A stretch of DNA of 24,880 bases from a virus. Lineage: Duplodnaviria > Caudoviricetes. Numbering within the stretch: the first letter of the stretch is position 1; every line of letters begins with the position of its first letter. Below the pieces are notes generated by a model that saw nothing but the letters and a program-made list of their open reading frames with translations, had not been told where the DNA came from and ran no database searches. The stretch is taken from positions 1 through 24,880 of IMG/VR virus record IMGVR_UViG_3300020044_000107. The stretch is one strand, 5' to 3'. Shown piece after piece: positions 732-24,847 of the stretch. A program made the translations under genes and the position numbers.

Positions 732-740
732 AGGAAAAAC

Positions 741-2150
741 ATGGCTATACTAGATATATTCAAAAGAAAACCAAATCAAAACGCGCAAGAAAGTAACACT
801 CTTTTTGGTCAAACTGCTCTTGGTAACAACATCTTACGCAATGTTCAAGGTCAAGGTTATCAGTCAAACAATCAATTATTATATGTAACAACAAGCTCTA
901 CAAATACCGCAGGCAGGACATTAGATATGTCCACACTATCCCGTAACTCTACTGTTATGGCTTGTGTGAATGCTAAAGCAAGAGCATTAGCTCAATTACC
1001 TATTAAGATCATGGCTTATGATGCTAATGGCAAAATGGTTGATGCAATAACTGATCCTAATGTTTCAACTCGCGACAAAGCTAAAGCTAAAGCAGTATAT
1101 AACTTATTAAACAATCCTAATAACTATCAATCATCATACGAGTTTTGGTATCAATGGTCGATGTGGTATGACTTATCAGGTGAAACATTTACTGCTTTAT
1201 GGCGTAAAGAACAAAGTAACTCTACGCTAACTCCAATGGAAATGTATTTATTAGATTCAACTCTAATTACTGCACAAATTACACCTACTCGTTATCCAAC
1301 ATACAGATTAAGCACCTCTACTTACGGCTTTAATAAAGATGAGCCATTAGATTATTTCCAAGTTATTCATGCTTCAGAAATGGCTTGGCAAGGTAGCGCT
1401 GGTTTTAATAAAGGTATCCTAGCAACTGAATTAGTATCACTAGATCAAGATATTGATCTCTATGCAAACTTTATTATGCTTAATGGCGCTAAACCTAGTG
1501 GCATGTTTGTTACAGATCAAGTAATTCCTGATGCTAAATTTAAAGAAATTGCCGCAAGACTAAAAGAAGCTTGGACATCTTTAACAGGATCGCGATCAAC
1601 TGATTTATCTAAACCAGGTCAAGGTATGTTGTTAGATAATGGCATGAAATATATGCCACTTAATATGCTAACCCTTCAAGATGCTGATGCAAGAGCATTA
1701 AAACAACAAACAATGAAGCGTATCTGCGGATTGTTTGGTGTGCCACCTGCAATGATTGGAATTGAAGAAGGTAAGTATAATAATACTCAAACAATGCTTG
1801 ACGAATTCTATAAATCAACAATGTTGCCTATTATTACTAATATACAACAGAAGTTTAAAACATCTCTGCTTGCTGGTTATCCAAATCTTTGTATTGAATT
1901 TCAAACACAAGATTTCTTAAAAGGCGCACCATTAGATCAAATGAATTATTCTGTAGCGGCGGTTTCTAATGGTATAATGACACCTAATGAAGCGCGAGAA
2001 TATCTAGGCAGACAAAATTTGCCAGGCGCAGACGAATTAAAAGATACATCAAAACAAGCTCGACCTATTAGTGGCACTTCACCTCAAGATACAGGTGGCG
2101 GTGGCAATACTTCTAGCGTTGGCAAAACAGGTCAGGCAGGTAAAGCCTAA
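741..2150 (+). CDS. Portal protein, HK97 family
   Basis: Motifs STVMACVNAKARALAQLP, LLNNPNNYQSSYEFW, NGAKPSG, LLDNGMKY, ICGLFGVPPAMIG, GIMTPNEAREYLG. SD AAGGA upstream. Follows terL. Confidence 0.95.
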   Translation: MAILDIFKRKPNQNAQESNTLFGQTALGNNILRNVQGQGYQSNNQLLYVTTSSTNTAGRTLDMSTLSRNSTVMACVNAKARALAQLPIKIMAYDANGKMVDAITDPNVSTRDKAKAKAVYNLLNNPNNYQSSYEFWYQWSMWYDLSGETFTALWRKEQSNSTLTPMEMYLLDSTLITAQITPTRYPTYRLSTSTYGFNKDEPLDYFQVIHASEMAWQGSAGFNKGILATELVSLDQDIDLYANFIMLNGAKPSGMFVTDQVIPDAKFKEIAARLKEAWTSLTGSRSTDLSKPGQGMLLDNGMKYMPLNMLTLQDADARALKQQTMKRICGLFGVPPAMIGIEEGKYNNTQTMLDEFYKSTMLPIITNIQQKFKTSLLAGYPNLCIEFQTQDFLKGAPLDQMNYSVAAVSNGIMTPNEAREYLGRQNLPGADELKDTSKQARPISGTSPQDTGGGGNTSSVGKTGQAGKA

Positions 2151-2260
2151 TGACATTAAAAGAGTTGCTCAATAAATTAACCCAACAGGCTAAAAAGAGA
2201 AAACCTACACCTGTTGAAACCAACGGAATGAAAAAAAAGGGAGTTCCAATCCATGACTAA
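2150..2260 (+). CDS. Small basic 36-aa ORF (MTLKELLNKLTQQAKKRKPTPVETNGMKKKGVPIHD), not in ORF track
   Basis: ATG overlaps the portal stop (TAATG) and its end overlaps the protease start (ATGACTAA), exactly filling the gap. This is the usual translational-coupling pattern. Confidence 0.5.
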   Translation: MTLKELLNKLTQQAKKRKPTPVETNGMKKKGVPIHD

Positions 2261-3044
2261 AGATATTAAGTTTTTATTTGAATCAAAAGTAGCTCTAGGT
2301 GTTTCTGCCGATGAAGCTTCTGATGTTGTAGGAGCTATTGAAGCTACTGTAACAACTTGGGGTGCTAGAGAAGGCGCTGATGGTCGTAAATTCAATTATA
2401 TGCCTGAAGGTTTTGCACAATGGGCGGATGAGTTTGCTAAATCAGGTAAACCACTTCCAATGTATTTCCAACATAATGATATGTCAATGCCTGTAGGCGA
2501 ATGGCAAGAATTTTCATTTACTGATGAAGGAATGGATGCTAAAGGCAGACTATTTACAAATACAACTGCTGGTAAAGACCTTTATACAATTATGAAAGAA
2601 AGTCCAGCTATGGTTGGCGGTGTATCTGTTGGTGCTTATGCTGATGAATACTCAATGGTTGATGCTGAAGGCATGGAAGTAGGCGCTGATGAAGATGGAT
2701 ATTTCCAAATTAAAAAAGGCGGTTTAAGAGAAGTATCAATTGTTATGAATCCTAACAACCTAGAATGTAATATCTCGAAATTAGAGTGCTTTAGAGCTGA
2801 TGGTTCTTTAGACTTAAAACTAATCGAGAAGGCATTGCGTGATGCAAAACTTTCAAGAAAAGATGCGACCACCGCATCTTCAATTTTCAAAAAGATTATA
2901 GAAACTCGTGATGAGCCTACAATCATTGATGAAAAAGCACCTATTCAGAGTGATGCTGATGCGGTGGTTGATGAGCAAAAAATTCTTGATGCTTTTGCTG
3001 AAAGAGAATTGCTTAAAATTTTAAATAATCGTCTTAAAGGATAA
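2253..3044 (+). CDS. Prohead maturation protease, HK97 family, with C-terminal extension
   Basis: Catalytic-type motifs PMYFQH (His), PVGEW, GGVSVG (Ser), LREVSIVMNPNN. Tail IEKALRDAKLSRKDA is typical. Lies between portal and capsid. Confidence 0.92.
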   Translation: MTKDIKFLFESKVALGVSADEASDVVGAIEATVTTWGAREGADGRKFNYMPEGFAQWADEFAKSGKPLPMYFQHNDMSMPVGEWQEFSFTDEGMDAKGRLFTNTTAGKDLYTIMKESPAMVGGVSVGAYADEYSMVDAEGMEVGADEDGYFQIKKGGLREVSIVMNPNNLECNISKLECFRADGSLDLKLIEKALRDAKLSRKDATTASSIFKKIIETRDEPTIIDEKAPIQSDADAVVDEQKILDAFAERELLKILNNRLKG

Positions 3045-3048
3045 TCAA

Positions 3049-4461
3049 ATGTCAGAAAAAATAATGGAAAAACTAGACGCTATTGAAGCGGCTAATTTAG
3101 CTAAAGTTGAAGAAGTAACTTCTTCAGTTGATGCTAAACTTGCTGAAACAGTAGCTTCTTTTGAAGAAAAGGTTGCGGCTCTTGAAGCTAAAGTAGCTTC
3201 AGTTAAAGAATCTGCTCCAATCATCAAAACTTACAAAACTATCGCTCAAGAAGTTAATCGTTCTGTTAAAGAACAATTAAAAGGCTTTTACGATAGCGGT
3301 GCTAAAGTAGAAAAAGAATTAAAAATGTTTGAAGATGCTGGTCAATATGATGCTTACATGAAAGAAGCTTCAGCAATTGGTAATCCAGCAGGTATCGGTG
3401 GCGGTGCAGGCGTGGGCGGTAGAACTGCTTATGATCCTGTATTCTTTGCATTAAGACTTGCTAATCCACTTCGTGGCGTATCTCGTTCTGTTGCAACTGA
3501 TGGCGCTACTTATCAATTCCGCGCTAAAACAGGCAACACAGGTAGCTGGTGGGGTTATGGTATTAATAACAACACATCTAGCCCACATCCAAACCCAAAT
3601 AGCTTGGATACAAACATTTGGCAATTAACATTGCAAGATTTGAATGTTCAATTCCCAATCAGAACTGCGGCTCTTGATGATATCGATGGTTTAGAATCAA
3701 ATGTTGTAGCAGACATGTTGTTAGAATTCTCACAACAAGAAGCTCTCTCAATGATTCAAAATAATGACCAAGTTGCGGTTTCAGTTGTTGATAACACAAC
3801 ACCTTATGGTGGTTCTGACGGCTTACGCGGTCTTAATCAATATGCTGGTGCGGCGGCTACTTATGCTGGCGGTCAAACAACAACTGCGGCATTCGGAACT
3901 TCAGGAACAGGCTCATCAAGCGGCTTACATACAATCGCTACTTATGACCAATTAATTCCTAATGGTTCTTCAACTGCTGGTGCTGGAAATGGTGTAGGTT
4001 TATTCAACAATGTTTCTTATAAAGACATCGTTAATTTCATCTATGCTTTACCACAACAATATTGGACACCAACAACTAAATTTGTTATCAATCCACTAAT
4101 GCTCGCGTCAATTCGCGGTTTAGTTGATGACAATGGTCGCCCAATTTACATCGATGGTCTTTCACGCGATGATGGTATTGTTGGCACTTTACTTGGTTTT
4201 GATGTTGTAGTTAATAAGTATGTTTCTAACCCACTTATCCCTACTACACCAAGCCCATCAGTAGATACAAACGCTTTCCCAATGTATTTTGGTGATTGGA
4301 ATCGCGGTCATACAATCGTTGATCGTTTAAATATGGTTATGCGTAGATACGACCAAACATTGCCAGGCTATATCACATTCTATGGTGAGAAGCGTCTAGC
4401 AACATCTGTGGTCGATCCATTCAGCATCATCCGTTACAGATCAGCACAATATTTAGATTAA
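3049..4461 (+). CDS. Major capsid protein, HK97 fold, with ~105-aa coiled-coil scaffold (delta) domain
   Basis: Heptad-rich N-terminus, then ALRLANPLRGVS, AALDDIDGLESNV, FVINPLMLASIRGLVDDNGRPIY, TLLGFDVVVN, YFGDWNRGHTIVDR, FYGEKR. Strong SD and biased codon use. Confidence 0.93.
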   Translation: MSEKIMEKLDAIEAANLAKVEEVTSSVDAKLAETVASFEEKVAALEAKVASVKESAPIIKTYKTIAQEVNRSVKEQLKGFYDSGAKVEKELKMFEDAGQYDAYMKEASAIGNPAGIGGGAGVGGRTAYDPVFFALRLANPLRGVSRSVATDGATYQFRAKTGNTGSWWGYGINNNTSSPHPNPNSLDTNIWQLTLQDLNVQFPIRTAALDDIDGLESNVVADMLLEFSQQEALSMIQNNDQVAVSVVDNTTPYGGSDGLRGLNQYAGAAATYAGGQTTTAAFGTSGTGSSSGLHTIATYDQLIPNGSSTAGAGNGVGLFNNVSYKDIVNFIYALPQQYWTPTTKFVINPLMLASIRGLVDDNGRPIYIDGLSRDDGIVGTLLGFDVVVNKYVSNPLIPTTPSPSVDTNAFPMYFGDWNRGHTIVDRLNMVMRRYDQTLPGYITFYGEKRLATSVVDPFSIIRYRSAQYLD

Positions 4462-4478
4462 TTCTAAATTTGTTGTTC

Positions 4479-4514
4479 AGGGTGGGGGAGCAATCCCCCT
4501 CTCTCTAATTTTTT
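4479..4514 (+). terminator. Rho-independent terminator/attenuator-like hairpin between the two capsid genes
   Basis: GGGGGA-GCAA-TCCCCC stem (4484-4499) with a GNRA tetraloop, extendable through AGGG/CTCT, followed by CTAATTTTTT. The U-run is offset from the stem, so it is probably leaky. Confidence 0.7.
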
Positions 4515-4525
4515 AGGAAAGAAAA

Positions 4526-5596
4526 ATGAATACATCTGAAAGAATTTTAAATGGCATAAAGCAAGCTTTAACTGAAGGTGAATCTAAAGTTAATCTTGTT
4601 AAAGAACAAGCCCAACAAGATGTAAATGAAGCTTCTCAACTTACAGGAAGCGGATTAGACAAAGGTGGTAGAACATACTTTGATGATGCGTTTGCGGCTT
4701 TGCGATATGCAAATCCTTTTAGACAAGGCAGTCGTCAAATTGTTACTACTGATACTTCCGCCGTTCAATTCGTTGCTAAAACAGGTAATGTTTTAAATGC
4801 AACAGGCGCAAACAACCCTTGGGGCTATACATTTACACCTAATGATGGTGAACCAGGCATTGCTACAAATATTTGGCAATTACCTACAAGAGTTTTATCA
4901 GCACAATTACCTTTGAGAAGTGCTTTACTATCAGATATTAATAATATTGATGCGGCAATCGTTAATGACCTTATTTTGGAATTTTCAGCTACAGAAGCAC
5001 AATCTATGGCGACTAACTACGATCAAGCTGGTTCTACAACATATACAACAGGCGCAACTAATGGTTTAAGAGGTTTGGCTTACTATGGCGTAAGCGCTTC
5101 TGCGGCGGCTTATGGCACAAGCGGAACTGCTATAACTAATGGTATCCACACAGTATTAAAAGAAGATTTCCCTTATGCGGCTATCACTTATGATGACATG
5201 GTTAATGCGGCAAGCAAATTGCCAGGTCAATATTGGAGTTTACCTACAACTGCATGGCACTTACATCCTGATGTAATTACTCAATTAAGAAAATTAAAAT
5301 CAGCAGGTGGTGGTGTTCCATTCTTTACTGAAGTTGGTGATGAAGATGGCGGTTCGTTAGCATTTGTATTTGGTTTCCCTGTGATTCCTAATGCATATTT
5401 ACAAGCTCCAGGCGTAGGTTCTGTTTCAGGTATATTAGCAAATTGGGATCAATTCCTAACTATTGCTGATGGCGAAGAAATTACACTTAAACGCTATGAC
5501 CAAACAAAACCTGGATATGTAACGCTATATGCTGAAAAGCGCGTAGCTTCATCAATCCGTAATCCTTTTGCTGGCGTGTATTTAACAGGGGCTTAA
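4526..5596 (+). CDS. Second HK97-fold capsid protein (paralog of 3049..4461), probably a minor capsid protein
   Basis: Collinear with the first capsid: GGRTYFDDAFAALRYANPFR vs GGRTAYDPVFFALRLANPLR; AKTGN; TNIWQL; LEFSATEAQSM vs LEFSQQEALSM; GLRGL; LPGQYW vs LPQQYW; RYDQTKPGYVTLYAEKR vs RYDQTLPGYITFYGEKR. Confidence 0.88.
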   Translation: MNTSERILNGIKQALTEGESKVNLVKEQAQQDVNEASQLTGSGLDKGGRTYFDDAFAALRYANPFRQGSRQIVTTDTSAVQFVAKTGNVLNATGANNPWGYTFTPNDGEPGIATNIWQLPTRVLSAQLPLRSALLSDINNIDAAIVNDLILEFSATEAQSMATNYDQAGSTTYTTGATNGLRGLAYYGVSASAAAYGTSGTAITNGIHTVLKEDFPYAAITYDDMVNAASKLPGQYWSLPTTAWHLHPDVITQLRKLKSAGGGVPFFTEVGDEDGGSLAFVFGFPVIPNAYLQAPGVGSVSGILANWDQFLTIADGEEITLKRYDQTKPGYVTLYAEKRVASSIRNPFAGVYLTGA

Positions 5597-5598
5597 TA

Positions 5599-6267
5599 AT
5601 GACTGATACTTTAGGTCAAATACCATTTGGTGGTGGCACTAGAAATCCGTTTAACTATGATAAGTTTGAACAGATCAATCGTGCTTTAACAACAGGTTGG
5701 CTAACATTAGAAGAAATTACTCAACAATTAAATTTGTTTGGTGACGAATCTCAAGATAGTTATTTAGAAGGTTTAGAATTAGCGGTTCGTATGCACATCG
5801 AGGATTATCTCGGCATGCCTATATTCCCTGTTTCTTATCGTTCTTATTATGGTCTTGGTTCTTTATATGCTAATCCTGTTTGTTTAGATTTGCCGCAAGT
5901 ATCTTATAAAGATAGTTATAATTCGGGTGGCGTTGTTGTTAATAGCGTTAAATACTATAACAATGCCAATCCTGTAGTTATTACGACTTTAGCTAGCTCT
6001 GCTTATACTTATGATCCAACAGGAAATAAAGTAATCTTACCTGGCGGGATGCCAAGCGATGTTAATACAGTTTTAACTTCACCTATTGTTATTGAGTTTA
6101 CAGTTAATCCTAACTTCTTACAGGCTTATCCTGTAATTAAACAAGCGGCTTTATTGTTATTAACTCATCTTTATAATAATAGATCAGAAACAACTTTAAG
6201 TAAGTTACAAACAATTCCTTATGGAGTGGATGCGCTTTTAAGACCTTATAAACCATTGGTGATGTAA
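5599..6267 (+). CDS. Head-tail connector (HK97 gp6 / SPP1 gp15-like adaptor with central insertion)
   Basis: LTLEEITQQLNL...D..YLEGLELAVRMHIEDYLG and C-terminal IKQAALLLLTHLYNNRSET...IPYGVDALLRPYK are gp6-family signatures. Confidence 0.88.
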   Translation: MTDTLGQIPFGGGTRNPFNYDKFEQINRALTTGWLTLEEITQQLNLFGDESQDSYLEGLELAVRMHIEDYLGMPIFPVSYRSYYGLGSLYANPVCLDLPQVSYKDSYNSGGVVVNSVKYYNNANPVVITTLASSAYTYDPTGNKVILPGGMPSDVNTVLTSPIVIEFTVNPNFLQAYPVIKQAALLLLTHLYNNRSETTLSKLQTIPYGVDALLRPYKPLVM

Positions 6268-6612
6268 ATGGCAATTAAACGCTATGAGAATGTTGATGTA
6301 AATGATCTCACTTTCGGAACTGATCTTTATGGTGAATATACAACAACAATAACAAAGAAATTTACAACTAGACCTTTAGTGTCCGATGTAAAGAATTCTC
6401 TTGCTATTACGGAAAGGTATCGTGTATATCAAGATTTGATTCAATTTACTTTTAATTACACACCTAATTTAAAAGATATTGTTGATAATCAAAATTTATA
6501 TTCGATTACTTGGCGAAACCATGAGTGGCGTATTACCGATGCTATTGAAGCTAATGACAGGATGTCAGTAACCTTAATGTGTTACCGATCCGATCCTACA
6601 ACAAAGGTTTAA
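6268..6612 (+). CDS. Head closure / head-tail adaptor (SPP1 gp16-like)
   Basis: Size (114 aa), position, and patterns D.YGE and FTFNYTP...ITWRNHEWRITDAIE...VTLMC. Confidence 0.7.
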   Translation: MAIKRYENVDVNDLTFGTDLYGEYTTTITKKFTTRPLVSDVKNSLAITERYRVYQDLIQFTFNYTPNLKDIVDNQNLYSITWRNHEWRITDAIEANDRMSVTLMCYRSDPTTKV

Positions 6613-6613
6613 A

Positions 6614-7036
6614 ATGGCTACTCAACAAAATGTAAATGATTATGCAAAAGCCATTCAATGGCAGTTAGGTGATATAATATCACCAACGCCTGTGTATGCT
6701 AATTTCAATAGAAATTTTGCTACACAAAATGAATTTGTAACTTGGCAATTAAGAAATGTTCATCAACCTGTTTATACGGGCATATACCAAGATAACAAAG
6801 GTATTGATACACCTACTTTTCAAATCAGCGTATTTTCTACTGATATGGCAAGTGGTTTTGAATTAGCGAATGATATTTTACAAGCATTGCATGGTTATAG
6901 TGGAATATTTGGCAACCCTAGCGGAACAAATATACCAATATCTAAAGCTGATGTAGTGTGGTTATATAATGGATACGACAATGAGATCAATCTATTTAAT
7001 ATTTATATGGATTGCACCTTATACATACCAACATAA
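6614..7036 (+). CDS. Tail terminator / tail completion protein (SPP1 gp17 / DUF3168-like)
   Basis: 140 aa just before the tail tube; FQISVFS...ELANDILQALHGYSG pattern. Confidence 0.72.
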   Translation: MATQQNVNDYAKAIQWQLGDIISPTPVYANFNRNFATQNEFVTWQLRNVHQPVYTGIYQDNKGIDTPTFQISVFSTDMASGFELANDILQALHGYSGIFGNPSGTNIPISKADVVWLYNGYDNEINLFNIYMDCTLYIPT

Positions 7037-7070
7037 GAATTTTTAATTTTTTAATGTGAGGAAATAAATT

Positions 7071-7568
7071 ATGGCACTTCCAAATCGCGTCTTACCTGGT
7101 TTTAGCGCAACTCTTTTTGCTCAATCAGGCGCAAATCCAACAGTTTTAGATAACACAGAATTAGCAACATGGGCTGATGTTAATGCTATCTGTATTGCTC
7201 CTAACTCATTACCTGTTGAAGCTATCCCAGCATTCGGTCAAGATGATGCAGTTGCTAACTTCAATGTAGCTGGCGCTCGTCAATCTGACAAGATCCCAAC
7301 TCAAGCCGCTCCTACTTCAATGACAATAACTGCCGCTTGGAATCCTGCGGACACACAGTTAATTCAAATGAGAGATGATGCTTACAATGGCACAATCGAC
7401 AGAACATTCGTTGTTTTAGCTACTGATGGATTAGGTGACTTTGTTGCTTATGCTTTTAATGGTCGCGTAGGTCAATTCTCTGTTGATCCTAACCCAACTG
7501 CTGAAACAAAATGCACATTTACTGTTCACCCACGCGGTAATCAATACGGCTGGTCAAACAACACTTAA
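7071..7568 (+). CDS. Major tail (tube) protein, non-contractile
   Basis: Strong SD (GAGG), biased codon use, acidic beta-rich sequence: IPAFGQDDAVANF, MTITAAWNPAD, YAFNGRVGQFSVD...KCTFTV. Position before chaperones and tape measure. Confidence 0.82.
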   Translation: MALPNRVLPGFSATLFAQSGANPTVLDNTELATWADVNAICIAPNSLPVEAIPAFGQDDAVANFNVAGARQSDKIPTQAAPTSMTITAAWNPADTQLIQMRDDAYNGTIDRTFVVLATDGLGDFVAYAFNGRVGQFSVDPNPTAETKCTFTVHPRGNQYGWSNNT

Positions 7569-7586
7569 TTAGGACAAGGAAAAGAA

Positions 7587-7814
7587 ATGACACAACAAAT
7601 TAAAACAAGCGATGATTTATTAAGTTATTTGGTATCCCAAGCTGGTTCAGGTCAAAAGAATTGGTTTGGGTTTGCCCAACAACGCTTAACAGGAATTAAT
7701 TTAGCCCATGAGATTGCAAAACATCATGCGGATAAACTTACACCTGAAGAAGCAGTTGATTATGCTATTAAATTAAATAATGCAATTTATCATAAAATAA
7801 TTAAGGCAGATTAA
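7587..7814 (+). CDS. Hypothetical helical protein (75 aa) in the tail operon
   Basis: SD AAGGA; stop overlaps the next start (TAATG). No recognisable motif. Confidence 0.65.
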   Translation: MTQQIKTSDDLLSYLVSQAGSGQKNWFGFAQQRLTGINLAHEIAKHHADKLTPEEAVDYAIKLNNAIYHKIIKAD

Positions 7815-8368
7815 TGAGTGTTAAATTTGCGGTCAATGGGTTAAAAGAAACTCTTGAAGCTTTTAAAGAATTTCAAGAGCAATTTGGCGACAAAGACGCA
7901 AAGAGTAAAGTATTAATACCAGCAGTTAGAGATGCCATGAAGCCTGTATTGGCTATGGCTAAAACTTTATCACCTAAAGATACAGGCGCATTGGATCGTT
8001 CTTTGTATATCACCGCAAGGCGACCTACTAGAAAAGATATGAAGTCAAGATATGTAACACCAAAAGATTCTGTTATATCACTTGTTTCATCTCGACCAAT
8101 CCCTAAAAAATTAAAGCAACAATTTCATGCTGAATATGGAAACTTAAAAGGTAGTGAGTATAAAAAAGCCAAAAGAAAATTCTATGGCGAGCAAGGTGTT
8201 ATGCACGATGCAAGAGCTATTGCAAACGAATTCGGAACTGCCAAGATGTCCGCAAAACCATTTATGCGAATATCATTAGAATCACAAGCGCAAATGGTAG
8301 CATCAAAGTTAGGTATGATTTTAAAACAAAAAATGGATGCTTATAAAGCTAAAAATTTAACAACATAA
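7814..8368 (+). CDS. HK97 gp10-like tail completion/neck protein
   Basis: VNGLKET, AKTLSPKDTGALDRSL and EFGTAKMSAKPFMR are HK97-gp10 family signatures. Basic protein. Confidence 0.85.
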   Translation: MSVKFAVNGLKETLEAFKEFQEQFGDKDAKSKVLIPAVRDAMKPVLAMAKTLSPKDTGALDRSLYITARRPTRKDMKSRYVTPKDSVISLVSSRPIPKKLKQQFHAEYGNLKGSEYKKAKRKFYGEQGVMHDARAIANEFGTAKMSAKPFMRISLESQAQMVASKLGMILKQKMDAYKAKNLTT

Positions 8369-8377
8369 GGAAAAGAT

Positions 8378-8848
8378 ATGAGTAAATTAGGATCAGCTCT
8401 CGGTAAAAAATACGAGGAAAATAGATTATCAGTATTAACTAGGTCGTTTCAATTAGGCGACCATACATTTAAGGTAAGAATTCCAAGCGTTCAAGAAATT
8501 GAAGCTATTTATAATTACTTTAAAAATCCTAATGAAGAAAAGATTGAAGAAGAATATCAGTTAATGATAAAAGCTTTTGAGAATCTTAAAGATCAAGAAG
8601 GTGTAGAAGTTAAAGATAACGATTTTATTATTGACGGAAGATCAGTAAGAGAAACTGCTACAAATAAACATGTATTGCAATATAGAATAGTTGAGTATAT
8701 TAAATTTTTAATACCTGAAACAGGATCATTAGAAGATATAACTTATGAAGATGTAGAAACTGAATTTCCATTATCAGTTCAAATGACTTTAGTGGAAAAA
8801 ATTAACGAGGTTATTAGCCCTGACTATAAAGACATAAAGTCAAAGTAG
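8378..8848 (+). CDS. Tail assembly chaperone (lambda gpG-like)
   Basis: Acidic 156-aa protein with FKVRIPSVQEIEAI, two genes before the tape measure. Overlapped by a -1 frame at its 3' end. Confidence 0.65.
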   Translation: MSKLGSALGKKYEENRLSVLTRSFQLGDHTFKVRIPSVQEIEAIYNYFKNPNEEKIEEEYQLMIKAFENLKDQEGVEVKDNDFIIDGRSVRETATNKHVLQYRIVEYIKFLIPETGSLEDITYEDVETEFPLSVQMTLVEKINEVISPDYKDIKSK

Positions 8849-9189
8849 TAGGCTCGTTAAGAACCCAAGTGCGGGCGGCTATGGTCTTTAACGGGCATAC
8901 AATACAAGATATAGATGCGCTTGATGAGCATACCATGAATGAAATAACAGTCATGTATGCGGATGGGTTAGTTGGAAATAGAAGCTTATTAACTATGCAG
9001 GGAACTCTAATAGCTGGAGTTTTTAATTATTTAAGAGCAAGTAATAGCCAACCTTATACTCTAAAAAGCGTTTTAGGTAGTGCTTATGAATATTTTTATG
9101 GAATAGAGAAAGCTGATCCTAGCGAATCTTTATTAACATTTATGTCGCAAGCACCTGACTTTAAAATGGACAGATTTAAAGGTAAATAA
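8830..9189 (+). CDS. Tail assembly chaperone extension (gpT-like), probably expressed as a G-T fusion by -1 frameshift
   Basis: The -1 frame is open from 8830 (after TAA at 8827-8829) to 9189 and overlaps the last codons of the upstream gene. No clear SD for GTG 8869. Classic G/GT position. Confidence 0.62.
   Translation, partial: RHKVKVVGSLRTQVRAAMVFNGHTIQDIDALDEHTMNEITVMYADGLVGNRSLLTMQGTLIAGVFNYLRASNSQPYTLKSVLGSAYEYFYGIEKADPSESLLTFMSQAPDFKMDRFKGK
8835..8896 (+). promoter_or_regulatory. Putative -1 ribosomal frameshift cassette (A_AAG slip plus 3' hairpin)
   Basis: ATA AAG TCA AAG TAG, then 6 nt after the last AAG a stem GCTCGTTAAGAACC (8852-8865) / GGTCTTTAACGGGC (8883-8896) with 13 of 14 pairs including two G-U. 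Confidence 0.55.
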
Positions 9190-9191
9190 TC

Positions 9192-10979
9192 ATGGCAATT
9201 ATTTCAAGATTAGCGGTTTTACTTGGGCTTGATGCAGGCGAGTTTAATGCCAATCTAGGTAAGGCTAAAGACAAAGTAGAAGGATTTAGCACAGGCGCAA
9301 AAGTATCTTTACTTGCGGTTGGTGCGGCTTTTACTGCTTCCGCTCGTGAAGCAATTAACTTTGCCGACAAAATAAATGATGTCGCTAAAGCTAATGAAAT
9401 GTCCGTTCAATCTGTATTGCGTATGTCGCAAGCTTTATCAACGAATGGTGGTAATGCTGACGATGCTGGCAAACTTATGGCATCGTTCGCTAATAAAATT
9501 GATGAAGCCGCTCAAGGATCATCAAAAGCACAAAAAGCCTTTTTATCAATTGGCGTTTCCATTAAAGATTTAAAAACTCTCGCACCTGATGAGTTATTTC
9601 AAAAAACTATTAAATCCCTTGCTGGTATTGAAGATCCCGCTAAACGAAATGCGCTTGCTATGGATATGTTTGGCAGAGCTATTCGCGGTGTTGATATTAA
9701 AGGCATGGCGGAAGAATTTGAAAAAATTAAAAGTAAATTTGCAGGATCGGAAGAAGCATTTAAAAGTGTAGGAAATTCTGTTGATAGATTAGATAGATTC
9801 TTTTTAAATTTAAAAGTTACTCTTGCCACTCGCCTTGCTCCAGCTTTTGAATATGTAACAATTGCTATGGAAAATTGGCAAAATAAATCACAAGGTATAG
9901 TTGATAGATTTGCTGAAATTAGAAAAGAAGCAGGATGGTGGGCGGCTTGGAAAGATAAAGAAGGTTTCCAAAAATTTGAATTTCCTACACGCGGTTCGGT
10001 TCAGGGAGCTAATGTTCCTGGCATTATGTCAGGCATTGGTGGTGTAGCCGCGCCTAAAAAAGATATTAGAGATGTTGAGATTGATGAAAAACAAAAAGCA
10101 GAATTAAAACGCTTAAAAGAAGCCGCAGAAAGACAACAAGAATTTTACGAAAAAGAAATGTTAGTTAGCAAAGCTAAAGGCGAAAGATTACAAAAAGAAC
10201 ATGAATTAGCTTTTGTTTCAGAAAACGAAAGAAAGCTACAATTAGAAATATATGACATTGAACAAAAGCGCAAACAATTAACTTTAGGCGATCAATATGG
10301 TCGCAAGATGACAGAGCAAGATGCTAATAAATGGATGGAAGCAGAAAAGGCTCGCGCGCAAGAAGCTTATGCAATTGCTCAACAACAAAGAGATTTTGAA
10401 TATGGATGGAAAAAAGCTTTTGCTAGTTATACAGATAGCGCTACTAATGCCGCTAAAATGGGTGAACAAGCATTCGTATCTGTTACTCAAAACCTTGAAC
10501 AAGCATTAGATAATTTTGTTCAAACAGGAAAATTAAGCTTTAGTGATTTAGCAAGAAGCATTATTAGCGATCTTATTAAAATTCAATTAAAAGCACAAGC
10601 TACTGCAATATTTAAAAGTTCAGGAATAGGCGATTTTTTTAGTAGTATATTTGGTGGCGGTAGCAGTGCTTCACCTGCATTTGGTTCAACTGCTTTTTGG
10701 GGTGGTAAAGCCGAAGGCGGTGATGTTAATGGTAGTAGTTCATATATGGTAGGAGAGCGAGGTCCTGAATTATTTGTGCCTAACACTCCAGGCACTATTA
10801 TTCCAAACAACCAATTAAGTTCTATGGGCGGTGGACCTCAAGTCGTGTATAATGGTCCTTACATTGCTAACATGAGCGCTATTGATACACAAAGCGCAAC
10901 ACAATTTTTGGCTAAAAATAAACAAGCAGTTTGGGGTGCTAATCAATCTGCTCAAAGATCACTACCGCAATCGAGATAA
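9192..10979 (+). CDS. Tail tape measure protein, lambda-family C-terminus (595 aa)
   Basis: N-terminal ISRLAVLLGLDAGEFNANL, helical Ala/Lys-rich body, GWKKAFASYTDSATNAA...NFVQTGKLSFSDLARSIISDL and AEGGDV...YMVGERGPELFVP. Confidence 0.93.
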   Translation: MAIISRLAVLLGLDAGEFNANLGKAKDKVEGFSTGAKVSLLAVGAAFTASAREAINFADKINDVAKANEMSVQSVLRMSQALSTNGGNADDAGKLMASFANKIDEAAQGSSKAQKAFLSIGVSIKDLKTLAPDELFQKTIKSLAGIEDPAKRNALAMDMFGRAIRGVDIKGMAEEFEKIKSKFAGSEEAFKSVGNSVDRLDRFFLNLKVTLATRLAPAFEYVTIAMENWQNKSQGIVDRFAEIRKEAGWWAAWKDKEGFQKFEFPTRGSVQGANVPGIMSGIGGVAAPKKDIRDVEIDEKQKAELKRLKEAAERQQEFYEKEMLVSKAKGERLQKEHELAFVSENERKLQLEIYDIEQKRKQLTLGDQYGRKMTEQDANKWMEAEKARAQEAYAIAQQQRDFEYGWKKAFASYTDSATNAAKMGEQAFVSVTQNLEQALDNFVQTGKLSFSDLARSIISDLIKIQLKAQATAIFKSSGIGDFFSSIFGGGSSASPAFGSTAFWGGKAEGGDVNGSSSYMVGERGPELFVPNTPGTIIPNNQLSSMGGGPQVVYNGPYIANMSAIDTQSATQFLAKNKQAVWGANQSAQRSLPQSR

Positions 10980-10982
10980 TAT

Positions 10983-11666
10983 ATGTCCACATTAAATCAA
11001 ATATTAGCAATATCTGAATCAGTAGGCATTAATGACCATAGATTTATTGGTCAAATGATGAGCCGAAATCAGCGCGTTGCTACTTCCGAAATTCTTACTG
11101 TTCAACCATTTCAATTTGATATGAAGCCAATGAATTATTTGCTTTATAGTCAAAACAGAGCTTTATTATCTAACTTGCGTGAAGTGGATCGCCAATATGA
11201 ATCTTACCTAAACTTTGGTTCTACAGGCTGGTGGAATTATATTGCTTATCAAGGCGACATGAATTCTGCTCAAATACCTGATTGTCAATATCAAACATCA
11301 AGCGCTAATAAAACAATTGTATTAGGAAATCTTCCAGCAATACCTTCAACTGATTACATTGTTAAAACAGGCGACTTTTTACAGATTGATCGTTATGCTT
11401 ATATAGCAACTGCCGATGTTCAAAGAGGTGCTGGATCAACTGTTAATATTCCTGTTCACAGAACCATTATGACTACGCTTGCAAGTCCTATGGATGCAGT
11501 TATAGGTCAATATGGCATTACACAATCATTAGGTGGATTAACTTATATTGGCGTAACATTCCCTGTTATTCTTACAGAATATCCAGGATATAGTTTTGTT
11601 CCAATGACTAATGATTCATTCATATCATGGAGTGGATCATTTAAAGCAATAGAAGCGGTTTTATAA
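10983..11666 (+). CDS. Distal tail protein (Dit-like)
   Basis: Immediately after the tape measure; 227 aa; beta-rich with VKTGDFLQI insert and terminal FKAIEAVL. Call rests mainly on position. Confidence 0.55.
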   Translation: MSTLNQILAISESVGINDHRFIGQMMSRNQRVATSEILTVQPFQFDMKPMNYLLYSQNRALLSNLREVDRQYESYLNFGSTGWWNYIAYQGDMNSAQIPDCQYQTSSANKTIVLGNLPAIPSTDYIVKTGDFLQIDRYAYIATADVQRGAGSTVNIPVHRTIMTTLASPMDAVIGQYGITQSLGGLTYIGVTFPVILTEYPGYSFVPMTNDSFISWSGSFKAIEAVL

Positions 11667-12262
11667 TGTCAAACGATATAATACCAATACAAAATACTAA
11701 TAACATAAGGATGGCAGATTTCGTAAGAGTTACGACTGCTAGTGGCGTTTATCGTTTTGCAACAACCCCTTCTGTATTAACTATTCCTGCCGTTGATGCT
11801 CAACCTTTTGATGCTCTTGGTGCATTAGTTAAAATTAATGATGTTCAACGCGACATTAAATCAACTGCCAATGAAACAACTATAACTTTAGTCGGACTTG
11901 ATACCGCATTATTGGGATGGGTATTAGGACATGATATTAAAGGTTCTTTAATTGAAATGTGGCATGGATTTTTTGATGACCAAAATGAGTTAATTACTAC
12001 AGGCGGATCAGGCGGTCTTTATAAATTCTTTACAGGCTATATTAGTTCCTTTTCTATTTCAGAACAATATATGGAAGAAGCAAGGGCGTATGTAGGAATT
12101 ATAACCGCTTCAGCATCTAGCATTCAAATAATTCTTCAAAATAGAACTGCTGGCAGATATACCAATAACAATGCTTGGCAATTTTTTAATCCTGGCGATA
12201 CTTCAATGAATCGTGTTAATTTTATTGAAACTATTAATTACGCTTTTGGAAAAGAAGGTTGA
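11666..12262 (+). CDS. Tail-tip / baseplate hub protein (DUF2163 / lambda gpL-like position)
   Basis: FDALGALVKINDVQRDI, ITLVGLD, IEMWHGFFD, FFTGYISSFSISE, RYTNNNAWQFFNPGDTSM pattern seen in siphophage tip genes between Dit and J. Confidence 0.6.
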   Translation: MSNDIIPIQNTNNIRMADFVRVTTASGVYRFATTPSVLTIPAVDAQPFDALGALVKINDVQRDIKSTANETTITLVGLDTALLGWVLGHDIKGSLIEMWHGFFDDQNELITTGGSGGLYKFFTGYISSFSISEQYMEEARAYVGIITASASSIQIILQNRTAGRYTNNNAWQFFNPGDTSMNRVNFIETINYAFGKEG

Positions 12263-12693
12263 TTAGAAAAGCCACAAAATACGATAAGACACAATTAGCC
12301 GAAATGTTAAAAATGTTTCGTGATGAAAGTCCTATTCAGCAATATAAAAAATTAAATAATTATGATTATATTTATTCTTTAATAGATAGTATTGTTGCTG
12401 GTAGAGGTGTTATTTTTATTGAAGATAACATAGGATTTATTATGGCAATTATAACACCTACAATATGGTGCGATAAAACTTATGCTATGTATGAATTAGC
12501 ATGGTATGTAAAGCCTGAATACAGAATGGGAATGGTAGGTATAAGATTACTAAAAGAATATATTAACTATGCCAAGCAATTAAAAGAAGAAGGCAAAATT
12601 AAATTATTTACTGTTACTAAAATGACTACTAGCCCTGATCTTGATTATTCAAGATTTGGATTTAAAAAAATAGAAGAAAACTGGATGCAATGA
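12259..12693 (+). CDS. GNAT-family acetyltransferase-like protein
   Basis: N-terminal IRKATKYD, motif A-like WYVKPEYRMGMVGIRLLKEY, motif B-like YSRFGFKKIE. TTG start overlaps the previous stop (TTGA) and its stop overlaps the next start (ATGA). Confidence 0.75.
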   Translation: MIRKATKYDKTQLAEMLKMFRDESPIQQYKKLNNYDYIYSLIDSIVAGRGVIFIEDNIGFIMAIITPTIWCDKTYAMYELAWYVKPEYRMGMVGIRLLKEYINYAKQLKEEGKIKLFTVTKMTTSPDLDYSRFGFKKIEENWMQ

Positions 12694-15600
12694 TTGTTTT
12701 TATAATTAACTTTTTTATATTCTTTTTGCTATGCGCGCCCGCATACGCAATCGGAACTATTATTGCAACTGCCGTATTATCTGCTGGAACTGCTGGCTGG
12801 ATTGTAAGCACAGTAGCTTTTGCTATTAATATGGTTGCATCATCTATTCTTTCTAAAATATTTGCGCCTAGCATTCCAGGACAAGACAATCTTAATGCAC
12901 AACAACCTAATCCTGGTAATAGACAACAACTTCCACCTGCTGGCGATAATAAACTTCCTGTTATTTATGGATCAGCTTATGTAGGTGGTGTTATTACCGA
13001 TATGTCTATTACGGAAGATAATCAAAATATCTATTGGGTATTTGCTTTATCTGAAGTAACTAATACAGAAACAGGTGGAACTCCTGATACATTTACTTTT
13101 GGTGATGTTTACTGGGGCGGAAAAAAAGTAATATTTGGAAGTGGCTCGGCAGTAACAGGATTAGAAGATGAATCTACAGGCGAAGTTCAAGATGTTACAG
13201 GCTATATGGATATATGGTTGTATCGTAATGGATCAAGCCAGCCTACTAATACTGCAACATCGGCTATTGATGTAATGAATAGTGCTGGTCTTATTTATAC
13301 TTGGGATGCTACCAAATTAATGAGTAATACGGCATTTGCTATTGTTCATCTTAAATATAATCAAGATAGAAACTTAACTGGATTAAATCAAACTAGATTT
13401 CAAATTACCAATTCAAGAACTGCGCCTGGTGATTGCTTCCTAGATTATTTTACTTCTACAAGATATGGCGCGGCAATTCCTGTAGCTAATATTAATACTG
13501 ATTCATTAGATGATCTAAATACATATTCAAGTCAATCATTTACATATACGGATTATGATGGCAATACAACAACTCAACCTAGATTTACATTTAATGGTTC
13601 AATAGATACCAATTTAAAAATCATGCAAAACATTCAATCAATGTCAGATTGTTGTGATTGTTTGGTTAAATACAATGAAATATTAGGTTTATGGGGTGTG
13701 ATTGTTCAAAGCCCAACTTATACAATTGCTATGGATATTAATAACACTAATATGATTGGCGGAATTACTGTAACTCCTATTGATCTTAATAATTCATTTA
13801 ATGTCATTGAAGTTAAATTTCCCGATGGTTCTGCTAAAGACAGTTTTAATTCAGCTACATTTGATTTGGCAACTATTGATCCAAGTCTTTTATTTGCTAA
13901 TGAGCCTGTCAATAAACAATCAGTTAATCTTTATTTAGTTAATAACAATGTTCAAGCCCAATATCTTGCTAACAGAATGCTTGAAGCGGCAAGGGAAGAT
14001 TTACAAATTCAATGTGAAATTAATTTTATAGGTCTTGAATTAGAAGCTGGCGATATTGTTACAGTTACTAATGCCAATTATGGCTGGGTAGCAAAAGAAT
14101 TTAGAATTAATAAAGTTATAGAAAAATTTAGTGATACTGGTCAAGTTACTGCATCACTTAATTTAATGGAATTTAATGCTCAAGTTTATGATGATGTTAA
14201 TATAACTGAATTTACACCAAGTCCTAATACTGGCATTGGTAGCCCTGTAACATTTGGAACTGTTCCTGCACCTGTAGTTACTGCACAATATCCTAATATA
14301 GCTATTCCTAGTATCTTTGTAACGCCAACATCATCAAGCGCTGGTATTACTCAATATGCTGAAATTTGGTATTCAGCTTATCAATATCCTACGACTAGCC
14401 AATTAATATTTGCTGGCACTACCGCTATTCAATCTAATGGCAATCCTTATGGATTAAGTGAAGTTTTACCGCCTGTTGAAATATCTAATTTACCTGCGGG
14501 CAATTGGTATTTCTTTAGTCGTATGGTCAATGCTATTGCTTCAAGTGATTATTCATTAGCTTCAACATTATTAGAATGGCGACCTACTACATGGCAATAT
14601 ACAGACCGATATTTATCTATTGCTTATGCTGACGATATAGATGGAACAGGATTTGATTTAAACCCTAGAAATAAATTGTATTATGGATATTATAATACTT
14701 CATCCACTACACCTTCTAGTAATTCAGCCGACTATGCTGGCACTTGGACATTAGCCGATCCAGCGTTTGGCACAAACATTTATTTAATTTATGTCAATAG
14801 ACAAAACTTTAAATTTAGCTTTGATACAGATTTTGCTACTTACGCTTCAGGATCAGGCGCATTCGTGCCTACAACAACCGCTAACTTTGATCCTAAAATA
14901 TGGTCAGCTTTACCTGATGGCACAAACATAATTGATTTAAGACCTTCTACAGGACAGTTTTTAGGTGTAGGCAATACAACGACAGGCACAGGACAAATTA
15001 AAATTACGAATACTAATGATGGTCAAGTGATTGCGTCATTAGATCAATTCCTAGACTTTGGTGGTCCTACTATTAAAACAGGAACGGCTACTACATTAAC
15101 CATTGACATTTATGGTCGCGTTGTAGGCTTTACAACACCTGATGATTTCTACATGACTATTGATAGCTTTGTAGCTACCTCAAGCCAAACTGCATTTAGC
15201 GTTACAAGAAATGCTAATTATATTAATGGTCAATGTTGGGTATTTCAAAATGGTTGTTTATTAAATGAAGATGAATATACAGATACTAATACAACTGTTA
15301 CTTTAGATACTGGCGCTGACTTAAACGATCAAATAGATATTGTTTCATTTAGAGCAATTTCAAGTGGTAATTTTTATGCTTCTACATCATTAATTGTGGA
15401 TAGCGTAGCTGGTTCTGTAGTAACTTATGGTTCAACTGCATTACCTCATCAATTAATTAATGCTGGCGATATAATGACATTTAGCAATACAGGAACGCCA
15501 ACACAATACACAGTCGCAAGTGTTAATTATGCAACTTATGAAATTACATTTACAACTTCCGTAACTGCATCTAATGGCGATTCTATTTATATTTATCGTG

Positions 15601-16061
15601 CCGCCGCTTCATCATATCCTGTATTTAGCAGATTCAATGCTTCATTAACTAATGCTTCATCTTATACGCCTACAGAATGGTCTTTCTTATCAGGATATGA
15701 ATTACCATTTATGAATGGCACAGTAGTTCCCGATCAAGATTATGATATTGTAAGTAATACTTATACCAATTTACCAAACACAACAAGCGGCACTTTATCC
15801 ATTATTCAATTTACTGCAAACAATACAACGACACCTACAGGCACACCTGTAAATTCACCTGTGTTTTCAGTTATAGGACAAGATACTTATGAATTTAATT
15901 ACACAATTGACGCTTTTAATTTATACGGAAATGGGGTATTATTAGTCGATCCTGATGATTACACTACAGGGATAACAGGGCAATATACATTAACAACTGT
16001 GCCTGATACTAATATTACTGTTTTACAACAACAAACATACGCACGCGCTGGTGCGGCATAA
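12690..16061 (+). CDS. Tail tip attachment / central fibre protein (lambda J-like), 1123 aa
   Basis: LPVIYGSAYVGG, PGDCFLDYFTSTRYGAAIP, RFTFNGSIDT, NVIEVKFPD, QAQYLANRMLEAAR, LEAGDIVTVTNANYGW..KEFRI, followed by FN3-like and Thr-rich beta domains. Confidence 0.85.
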   Translation: MIVFIINFFIFFLLCAPAYAIGTIIATAVLSAGTAGWIVSTVAFAINMVASSILSKIFAPSIPGQDNLNAQQPNPGNRQQLPPAGDNKLPVIYGSAYVGGVITDMSITEDNQNIYWVFALSEVTNTETGGTPDTFTFGDVYWGGKKVIFGSGSAVTGLEDESTGEVQDVTGYMDIWLYRNGSSQPTNTATSAIDVMNSAGLIYTWDATKLMSNTAFAIVHLKYNQDRNLTGLNQTRFQITNSRTAPGDCFLDYFTSTRYGAAIPVANINTDSLDDLNTYSSQSFTYTDYDGNTTTQPRFTFNGSIDTNLKIMQNIQSMSDCCDCLVKYNEILGLWGVIVQSPTYTIAMDINNTNMIGGITVTPIDLNNSFNVIEVKFPDGSAKDSFNSATFDLATIDPSLLFANEPVNKQSVNLYLVNNNVQAQYLANRMLEAAREDLQIQCEINFIGLELEAGDIVTVTNANYGWVAKEFRINKVIEKFSDTGQVTASLNLMEFNAQVYDDVNITEFTPSPNTGIGSPVTFGTVPAPVVTAQYPNIAIPSIFVTPTSSSAGITQYAEIWYSAYQYPTTSQLIFAGTTAIQSNGNPYGLSEVLPPVEISNLPAGNWYFFSRMVNAIASSDYSLASTLLEWRPTTWQYTDRYLSIAYADDIDGTGFDLNPRNKLYYGYYNTSSTTPSSNSADYAGTWTLADPAFGTNIYLIYVNRQNFKFSFDTDFATYASGSGAFVPTTTANFDPKIWSALPDGTNIIDLRPSTGQFLGVGNTTTGTGQIKITNTNDGQVIASLDQFLDFGGPTIKTGTATTLTIDIYGRVVGFTTPDDFYMTIDSFVATSSQTAFSVTRNANYINGQCWVFQNGCLLNEDEYTDTNTTVTLDTGADLNDQIDIVSFRAISSGNFYASTSLIVDSVAGSVVTYGSTALPHQLINAGDIMTFSNTGTPTQYTVASVNYATYEITFTTSVTASNGDSIYIYRAAASSYPVFSRFNASLTNASSYTPTEWSFLSGYELPFMNGTVVPDQDYDIVSNTYTNLPNTTSGTLSIIQFTANNTTTPTGTPVNSPVFSVIGQDTYEFNYTIDAFNLYGNGVLLVDPDDYTTGITGQYTLTTVPDTNITVLQQQTYARAGAA

Positions 16062-23804: not shown

Positions 23805-24182
23805 ATGTCAAAAGACAAGATAAAACATCAAGCTTACTGTCAAAAATATCGAGAAAATAATCGTGCATTAGTCCTTTTAGGTCAGGCTAGATATCGATCC
23901 AAGAAAAAAGGTATTGAATTTAATTTAGAATTATCCGATGTAGTTATTCCCAAAGTATGTCCTGTATTAAAAATCCCTCTTACTGCTGGAAGTTCTAGCG
24001 GTGGTCCTCGCGGATGTTCACCCTCATTAGATCGTATTGATAACACTAAAGGTTATATTAAAGGCAATGTCCAAGTTATTAGTCATAAAGCTAATACAAT
24101 GAAGCATTGCGCTGATAACAATGAATTGATATTATTTGCTAATTGGATTAAAAGAACTTATAGAAAGGTCATAGATGAGTAA
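23805..24182 (+). CDS. HNH-like (His-Me finger) endonuclease
   Basis: ARYRSKKKGIEFNL...CPVL...SPSLDRIDNTKGYIKGNVQVISHKANTMK, a phage HNH-variant pattern. Confidence 0.75.
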   Translation: MSKDKIKHQAYCQKYRENNRALVLLGQARYRSKKKGIEFNLELSDVVIPKVCPVLKIPLTAGSSSGGPRGCSPSLDRIDNTKGYIKGNVQVISHKANTMKHCADNNELILFANWIKRTYRKVIDE

Positions 24183-24387
24183 ATATAGTGAAGCTGGTAA
24201 AGGATCAAATCCTAAACTTAAACAAAAAAGCTTATATGATGAGAACTATGAAAAGATTTGGGGTAATAAAAAGAATAAGCTTTATGAAGAACGCTACTAT
24301 GATTCCGATGAAACAACTTCATGGGATCAAGATAAGGCTGATATGATTGGTCTTAATAACAACACAGGCGATCATTACATCAAATGA
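24175..24387 (+). CDS. Small hypothetical phage protein (GKGS motif)
   Basis: Overlaps the HNH stop; SD AAGG. AGKGSNPK...YDENYEKIWG resembles a recurring small phage protein pattern. Confidence 0.6.
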   Translation: MSKYSEAGKGSNPKLKQKSLYDENYEKIWGNKKNKLYEERYYDSDETTSWDQDKADMIGLNNNTGDHYIK

Positions 24388-24415: not shown

Positions 24416-24448
24416 ATAAAAAAGGGGCATTTTAAGCCCCTTAATTAT
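24416..24448 (-). terminator. Rho-independent terminator at the convergence of the two transcription units, probably bidirectional
   Basis: AAGGGGC (24422-24428) / GCCCCTT (24436-24442) stem. The A-run at 24418-24423 gives a U-tail on the - strand; AT-rich tail on the + side. Confidence 0.78.
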
Positions 24449-24464
24449 ATATATAATGTATATA

Positions 24465-24536
24465 TTATTTGTTCATTACATACATCGTTACTTCGAAACC
24501 AAATCTCATTTCTGTTGCTGAAGGTGTAGTCCACAT
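24465..24536 (-). CDS. pqqA: PQQ (pyrroloquinoline quinone) precursor peptide PqqA, 23 aa MWTTPSATEMRFGFEVTMYVMNK
   Basis: Read by hand on the - strand: ATG at 24536, TAA at 24467-24465, SD AGGAG 6 nt upstream. Has the PqqA consensus MW-x-x-P...R-x-G-F-E-V-T-M-Y with Glu15 and Tyr19 (ExxxY). Confidence 0.95.
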   Translation of the reverse strand: MWTTPSATEMRFGFEVTMYVMNK

Positions 24537-24619
24537 AATAAGCTCCTAAAGTTATATAGAATTTTCATTCTACAAACTCATTGTTTCATATTGAGTGAAA
24601 ACAAACCTCAAGAAAATCA
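24537..24619 (-). promoter_or_regulatory. pqqA leader: SD AGGAG, GAAA-tetraloop hairpin and short inverted repeats
   Basis: On the - strand TAGAAT-GAAA-ATTCTA (24572-24557); ACTCA/TGAGT (24576-24596); TTGAG-N11-CTCAA (24591-24611). TAGAAT could also be a -10 box. Confidence 0.4.
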
Positions 24620-24847
24620 TTAAAATGGTAGGTCAGCTTTACTTTCTGATCCTGCACCATCTTTAGGTTGAGGTTCTCTCATTGTTACCCAGCCATCAAA
24701 ATTGACAGGGATTGATTCAATAAGAAGTGAAGTGCCGCCTTGTTTATTAGACATTGCAACTCCGACTTTAGTCCAGCGAGCTTTTGTTTCGCCTTCTTTG
24801 TTTACATATTCGCCTGTTTTAGCGATTAGATCATGGGTTATTGCCAT
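24620..24847 (-). CDS. Small single-stranded DNA-binding-like protein
   Basis: GEYVNKEGETKARWTKVGVAM beta-hairpin pattern, then a flexible tail ending in DLPF, like the SSB C-terminal tip DIPF. Confidence 0.65.
   Translation of the reverse strand: MAITHDLIAKTGEYVNKEGETKARWTKVGVAMSNKQGGTSLLIESIPVNFDGWVTMREPQPKDGAGSESKADLPF

Follow-up and report, generated by a model that had tools for sequence, protein, structure and literature searches.

Relation to described systems

The occurrence in viruses of pqqA, the gene for the peptide precursor of pyrroloquinoline quinone (PQQ), is already known. In the Lake Baikal population VP_266, a viral PqqA was proposed to serve methanol oxidation in Methylophilaceae (10.1101/2020.04.02.019802; PMC7678222; accessible text), and pqqA is listed among viral genes in the accessible part of a further publication (PMC13188868). 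We describe here a pqqA gene in the IMG/VR virus record IMGVR_UViG_3300020044_000107, of which the whole stretch analysed, positions 1 to 24,880 (24,880 nucleotides), is called the window. As far as the accessible text of the Baikal paper allows the comparison, VP_266 and the window phage have in common a PqqA regarded as an auxiliary gene that assists Methylophilaceae hosts in oxidising methanol, but VP_266 is T4-like and was reported with a methanol dehydrogenase, whereas the window phage is small and resembles the isolate P19250A, and no XoxF match was obtained in the window or in P19250A. The same text states that P19250A encodes none of those genes; contrary to this statement, P19250A carries pqqA. 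No promoter analysis of viral pqqA was found in that accessible text. An earlier note on this DNA, made from its letters only, had supposed a possible precedent in uncultured freshwater phages; this precedent exists and was published with a like interpretation, and the novelty that the note attached to the gene was overrated. What is new is the stand-alone cassette with a host pqq operator, overlooked in cultured phages. We propose, with a probability of roughly 0.65, that a P19250A-like freshwater phage carries a genuine pqqA behind a host pqq box, on which a host activator likely acts, and that the additional precursor peptide is converted to PQQ by host PqqB-G, probably sustaining methanol dehydrogenase during infection.

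Among cellular systems, the orphan PqqA genes of Methylophilaceae resemble the window gene in being stand-alone cassettes with a Shine-Dalgarno (SD) sequence, a terminator and an upstream palindrome, and the same peptide is encoded at two of these host loci (L312 and L314). Methylophilaceae hosts typically possess a stronger distal box ~23 nt before a weaker proximal one, whereas the window phage has just one, a near-full box in the proximal position, whose palindrome is more complete than that of the host site nearest the promoter. In Pseudomonas, the LuxR-type activator AgmR/ErbR turns on PQQ synthesis by activating the pqq operon (PMC12997753, accessible text); Methylophilaceae genomes carry LuxR/GerE candidates, and LysR regulators too. 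In P19250A, the gene order, the terminator and the box spacing are as in the window and the peptide is 22/23 identical, while the tail-fibre region differs and pqqA has 11 base changes, with one codon showing an amino-acid change. Most auxiliary genes encode enzymes, whereas pqqA encodes a peptide substrate consumed one-to-one, in 72 bp that gene callers miss.

A genuine pqqA in viral DNA

The elements of the cassette are as follows.

24465..24536, minus strand: pqqA, 23-amino-acid PQQ precursor peptide and TAA stop (translation, Pfam and TIGRFAM models)
24543..24547, minus strand: SD sequence AGGAG, 6 nt 5' of the ATG
24580..24588, minus strand: predicted -10 hexamer AACAAT (24585-24580) with TG extension
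24607..24623, minus strand: 17-bp pseudo-palindrome TTAATGATTTTCTTGAG (the 'pqq box'), predicted activator site, one mismatch from the host consensus YTMATGRWWWTCATKAR
24422..24442, flagged on both strands: hairpin of an intrinsic terminator, separating pqqA from the convergent late-strand genes; the same in P19250A

The 72-bp open reading frame (ORF) is confirmed as a genuine pqqA. Its peptide matches PF08042 with 41.3 bits (cut-off 21.1, E 1.4e-10) and TIGR02107 with 38.5 bits (cut-off 20), both above cut-off, as the earlier note would have expected of the profile comparison that it proposed. The Glu15-x3-Tyr19 (ExxxY) motif is intact, and the ORF thus has the core of a PqqA, namely Glu-x3-Tyr in a short peptide with a leader; PqqA peptides range from 22 to 29 amino acids. 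No PHROGs family was found for the 23-amino-acid peptide. The 23-codon minus-strand frame, its SD sequence and its terminator had been read correctly from the letters: the translation holds, AGGAG lies 6 nt from the ATG, and the hairpin at 24442-24422 consists of a 7-bp stem followed by a T run, the 71-nt fold downstream of pqqA having a z of -2.95, with 2/200 shuffles equally good. SD-like words also precede 123 of 128 viral pqqA copies.

The gene lies in bona fide viral DNA. P19250A is matched by 26 of the 31 window proteins with the gene order kept (TerL 93%, portal 93%, first capsid gene 84%), and the order 75-aa ORF, pqqA, 70-aa ORF, endonuclease is common to the window and P19250A, as well as to 76 related contigs for the 75-aa ORF and pqqA. 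This synteny with an isolate bears out the view that the gene is phage-encoded. P19250A (KX815270) is an isolate phage of LD28, its host being Methylophilaceae bacterium IMCC19250; because this relative infects IMCC19250, the window host is probably a Methylopumilus/LD28-like member of the Methylophilaceae. The host guess of the earlier note agrees with this, both by the kinship of the peptide and by the P19250A relationship. Among the 132 cellular copies listed, the closest PqqA peptides are 22/23 identical and include those of Methylotenera, Methylophilus, metagenome-assembled genomes of Methylophilaceae and M. universalis, and the identical peptide occurs in two Methylophilaceae genomes of 1.2-1.3 Mb, flanked there by ordinary chromosomal genes. 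Queries with PqqB, PqqC, PqqD, PqqE and XoxF gave no match in the window, in the whole P19250A genome or in 247 other viral loci, which upholds the observation that no pqqB-E gene lies in the window; with the same queries, PqqB was found within 1.5 kb in 31 of 80 cellular loci.

A putative host-type operator ahead of the gene

The box shares bases with the stop codon that ends the 75-aa ORF and lies 37 nt ahead of the -10 in the window. Upstream words at a fixed distance are enriched in viral and in Methylophilaceae-type host pqqA copies: the half-site T[AC]ATG[AG], placed 36-38 nt before a -10-like hexamer, occurs in 59 of 121 viral upstream regions (3.4 in dinucleotide shuffles) and in 19 of 55 Methylophilaceae-type host copies (1.0 shuffled), against 1/70 other cellular copies (0.9). 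The offset between the half-site and a strong -10 peaks sharply at 37 nt, with 34/121 viral and 11/55 host upstream regions at this value. The exact host dyad YTMATGRWWWTCATKAR is present in 59 of 61 Methylophilaceae genomes, matches to the reversed control being few. Three small host genomes hold seven exact boxes, six of them at pqqA or pqqB, and 36 exact host boxes fetched from many more listed, mostly one per genome, precede pqqA in 25 cases, pqqB in 4 and other genes in 7. The common box points to a PQQ-synthesis operator of Methylophilaceae.

The window contains a single site within one mismatch of the host dyad, at 24623-24607, and a matrix built from host boxes alone ranks this site first (16.7, the runner-up scoring 11.0). 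The same matrix passes 57/121 viral upstream regions (4.1 shuffled) and 0/27 of those of another viral PqqA type, with high scores in Melnitz, Venkman and an uncultured spring phage. It also passes 18 of 70 other cellular copies, and the box is therefore not confined to Methylophilaceae-type genes. Relatives of the window locus tell the same way: the box is found in 76/76 relatives with pqqA and in 0/3 without it, and the columns of the box are conserved at 0.98, those of the spacer at 0.58 and those of the -10 at 0.92. Of 45 unique promoters among the relatives, 42 have a -10-like hexamer at offset 37, which reads CATAAT in 33. In one relative (L472), the SSB-like gene (SSB, single-stranded DNA-binding protein) is separated from pqqA by an additional small ORF, and the box is found at the end of this insert, staying with pqqA.

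If the -10 is taken by convention to begin at -12, the dyad is centred near -42, at a fixed spacing to the -10 and with the consensus -35 absent. Class II activators (CRP/FNR) bind near that centre. The arrangement at pqqA has the predicted layout of a class II activator-type sigma-70 promoter, and pqqA, having a predicted promoter of its own, is probably not simply the last gene of a leftward unit. The earlier note had placed it last in a unit containing an SSB-like gene; the SSB-likeness is plausible, by a weak match only, and the terminal position is probably not the whole description. More generally, the reading of the locus in that note stood as to the gene, its virality and its host, and overlooked the promoter box. 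Scored for a generic sigma-70 promoter (-35/-10), viral upstream regions hardly exceeded their shuffles (8.2 vs 8.0, n = 85), and a signal emerged only with the palindrome. The hexamer TAGAAT at 24572-24567 was considered as an alternative -10 and discarded, since relatives conserve the hexamer at offset 37.

Candidates for the putative activator can be named. A LuxR/GerE-domain regulator scores above cut-off in 5/5 small Methylophilaceae genomes, the LuxR/GerE-domain protein of M. universalis being a response regulator that adjoins a histidine kinase, and LysR regulators are likewise present in small host genomes. LysR sites follow the rule T-N11-A; this rule does not fit the dyad, although the two-site layout of the hosts is LysR-like.

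Beside these pqq sites, one exact host box (L366, G001:C1:443341-443357) stands 143 nt before a 263-aa ORF, which we take to resemble a proteorhodopsin, hinting at a wider energy regulon behind the host box. P19250A (L254) has, at 27833-27849 on the minus strand, a second high-scoring box with a -10, inside P19250A_0029 and directed antisense into the endonuclease gene; a second site of this type, box plus -10, was not seen in the window.

Conservation and spread of viral pqqA

Relatives were gathered through the neighbouring 75-aa ORF and not through the pqqA motif, taking the best 80 of 114; one ends too early, leaving 79 informative, and as their sequences are akin to each other the counts are of non-independent events. 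An intact pqqA lies directly downstream of the 75-aa ORF in 76 of the 79 and is missing in 3. Across 39 unique relative coding sequences, the proportion of synonymous differences (pS) is 0.41 and that of nonsynonymous differences (pN) 0.046, giving a pN/pS of 0.11, and neither Glu15 nor Tyr19 varies. When the neighbour on the other side served as anchor, pqqA was found in 71/80 loci, part of the remainder being short loci. The pN/pS and the identical host peptides mark pqqA as a host-derived metabolic gene kept under purifying selection.

A tblastn search of PqqA against 50,697 phage records, the short-query search of viral genomes that the earlier note had suggested, returned 12 matches: nine Methylophilales/Methylophilaceae phage records (P19250A, Venkman, MEP301, MEP401, MEP402 and four Melnitz), one uncultured spring phage and two Acinetobacter records. 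The same 12 records were returned with an Acinetobacter PqqA as query. NCBI names 18 taxa as such methylophages; the tally covers nine of them, and says nothing on MEP431-434, HIM624-A, Venkman EXVC038S, MG-MTP1 and RSA-MFP1. Queries of the phage records with PqqB, PqqC and XoxF gave no methylophage match. The pair labelled 'Acinetobacter phage MD-2021a' was rejected as a case of phage pqqA: the record opened (L008, CAKLQF020000010.1) contains a whole pqqABCDE operon among chromosomal genes, its pqqA unannotated, and is probably mislabelled host DNA.

The gene is unannotated in 7/7 methylophage-type records opened, P19250A included (pqqA at 28085-28153), and two of them have a hypothetical ORF annotated on the strand opposite to it. 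In the full texts of methylophage isolate papers, a set with some supplements included and the original P19250A paper outside it, no mention of pqqA was found, the sole PQQ match being a medium supplement; neither the prevalence of pqqA in methylophages nor the pqq box was found in the literature searched, the coverage of which leaves most subscription papers outside. Because the gene is unannotated and unmentioned in isolate papers, it is probably undercounted when the influence of viruses on lake and coastal methanol cycling is surveyed. Phage-host pairs are in culture for P19250A, Venkman, MEP301, MEP401/402 and Melnitz, which makes the long-debated fitness value of such genes directly testable, and pqqA could also mark the hosts of uncultured phages.

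In IMG/VR, the core pattern RFGFEVTMY occurs in an estimated 2,400 stretches, of which 120 were read; in 120/120 the pattern lies inside a small ORF, mostly with an SD sequence, and a strict Methylophilaceae-type pattern fits 99 of them. No pqqB-E gene was found in 80 viral pqqA loci with flanks of up to 5 kb. The genes upstream of viral pqqA belong to 47 different families among 83 loci, and pqqA is antisense to both neighbours in 30/88 loci; such varied neighbours and antisense placement fit a self-contained cassette. Other core patterns tried yielded 51 + 33 = 84 IMG/VR stretches, alphaproteobacterial PqqA types lying outside these patterns. Viral pqqA is mostly, not exclusively, of Methylophilaceae type, as judged from these patterns.

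It is tempting to hypothesise, at somewhat short of even odds, that Methylophilaceae phages have pqqA as a signature auxiliary gene, with a reach like that of psbA in cyanophages, unrelated lineages having each captured a cassette of ~180 bp made of the peptide and the host operator, such that the host regulator would switch the viral copy on and thereby raise the PQQ that infected cells produce for methanol oxidation.

A second viral PqqA type, with the core RLGFEVTMY followed mostly by FK, was seen in roughly 50 contigs (among L255-L305 and L319-L351), with no pqqB or pqqC within 1.5 kb and with the Methylophilaceae box absent. PqqA peptides that we take to be enterobacterial-looking occur in the IMG/VR contigs L274, L275, L294, L321, L323, L327, L331, L334, L342-L344 and L348. 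Many of the copies on such contigs lie near contig ends, and they are possibly host DNA at prophage borders.

Proposed role and competing explanations

It is proposed that a host activator would bind the box at the class II position and give pqqA its own transcript, so that the viral gene would be transcribed together with the host PQQ genes. Host PqqE and PqqD would then cross-link Glu15 and Tyr19, and proteolysis followed by PqqB and PqqC would yield one PQQ per peptide, by analogy with the described pathway of PqqD/E, proteases, PqqB and PqqC (PMC12997753, PMC9851590, 10.1101/2020.04.02.019802; accessible texts). Precursor dose would limit the PQQ supply, and more PQQ would raise progeny yield; that the dose matters is suggested by the hosts having multiplied their own pqqA. 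In 5/5 small Methylophilaceae genomes (the probable family of the window host, as judged from P19250A), pqqB, pqqC and pqqE are above cut-off once each, and a PQQ alcohol dehydrogenase is above cut-off in 4/5. The pqqA motif is present in all 121 Methylophilaceae genomes sampled, with 2-12 copies in 117, and the 1.3-Mb genome of M. universalis has three, all of them away from pqqB; pqqA counts of 3-12, with pqqB-G each single, have been described (PMC4109929, accessible text). This multi-copy pqqA against single pqqB/C/E, together with the common promoter box, lends indirect support to the supply of substrate as the function. OM43 depends on xoxF, which the accessible text of another study gives as its top transcript (PMC5120137).

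Several observations weigh against this proposal. Activation is deduced from the box spacing alone, and the regulators are candidates only. About half of the viral upstream regions fail the host-only matrix, which gives -4.6 for the box in MEP401/MEP402 and a modest 3.9 in P19250A and MEP301. The window -10 is weak (4/6), a generic promoter scan found nothing ahead of pqqA, and no terminator was called between the 75-aa ORF and pqqA, which makes read-through possible. The four xoxF-type loci scanned yielded no strong box, and its absence there ties pqqA to the making of PQQ rather than to methanol oxidation as such. The hosts already own 2-3 or more pqqA copies, the gain from an extra one being putative, and PqqB and PqqC have been named as possible rate-limiting enzymes (PMC9851590, accessible text). 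Two lake metatranscriptome runs share 5-6% of words, and their pqqA pieces, 34-76 bases long, have 3-8 other letters and flanks unlike those of the window; with flanks and letters that differ, these RNA pieces are not assignable to the window phage and were rejected as evidence of its expression.

The peptide might become PQQ and yet benefit the phage by a route other than methanol flux, through another quinoprotein, as a redox buffer or by export. PQQ has an antioxidant role, the box marks pqqA and pqqB rather than the xoxF-type loci scanned, and small host genomes hold a second PQQ-dehydrogenase-like gene, below cut-off. This explanation is rather unlikely: the ~2,400 viral stretches of RFGFEVTMY type stand against 84 for the other patterns tried, and no phage record of another host matched either PqqA query, the two Acinetobacter operon records aside, a bias that points to hosts living on PQQ-dependent methanol oxidation. 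As a decoy, the peptide would instead occupy PqqD/PqqE or the PqqF/G protease and depress PQQ synthesis in the host, and a replicating genome that expressed it very strongly could conceivably saturate these enzymes; binding is predicted for a substrate and a decoy alike. Its identity with host chromosomal copies speaks against the decoy, and a dead-end inhibitor should show divergence in its core, whereas Glu15 and Tyr19 stay constant in relatives picked without the motif. The decoy that the earlier note had offered as an alternative hence looks very unlikely.

A comparably low probability is given to the idea that the DNA box itself matters, the phage genome copies titrating the host regulator and altering host pqq expression with the peptide secondary. 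The phage site is indeed a fuller palindrome than the proximal host site and 98% conserved, but its spacing to a conserved -10 is constant, it disappears along with pqqA, it is the only strong site in the window and it accompanies a coding sequence under purifying selection. That the cassette is a neutral, host-derived hitch-hiker between phage modules, or is kept for its terminator only, is less probable still. The many small orphan cassettes of the hosts would be easy to capture, and 3/79 relatives do without pqqA; against this stand the pN/pS of 0.11, the presence of pqqA in unrelated phage types behind those 47 upstream families, and the three pqqA-less relatives, which show a terminator-like hairpin directly after the upstream gene. 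Finally, pqqA lies 345 bp from the contig end, as host DNA or a chimeric assembly might. The earlier note had named this as what would overturn its reading, and it is excluded for practical purposes by the arrangement shared with the isolate P19250A and 76 related contigs, the nearest viral pqqA copy being also closer (5/69 bases differing) than the nearest cellular one (9).

Gene neighbourhood

The remaining features of the window are given below.

24620..24847, minus strand: 75-aa ORF, weakly SSB-like, last of the leftward module upstream of pqqA; 84% identical to P19250A_0030
24175..24387, plus strand: 70-aa ORF, convergent neighbour, syntenic with the P19250A_0028/0029 pair
23805..24182, plus strand: HNH/endonuclease-like ORF, convergent neighbour, syntenic with the same pair
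3..16061, plus strand: packaging/head/tail module (terminase, portal, protease, two capsid-family genes, tape measure, tail); viral, P19250A-like

The 75-aa ORF has no Pfam match, and its likeness to a gene annotated as SSB is weak (34% identity, E 2e-5). In the head module, two tandem genes (3049-4461 and 4526-5596) match the capsid family PF05065, their P19250A counterparts being 84% and 83% identical. Further along, a family 2 (GT2) glycosyltransferase with a tetratricopeptide repeat (TPR)-like part (22338-23384) follows a 796-aa collagen-repeat fibre (19927-22317). No P19250A match was obtained for this glycosyltransferase, which suggests that the fibre-glycosylation module has been swapped relative to P19250A.
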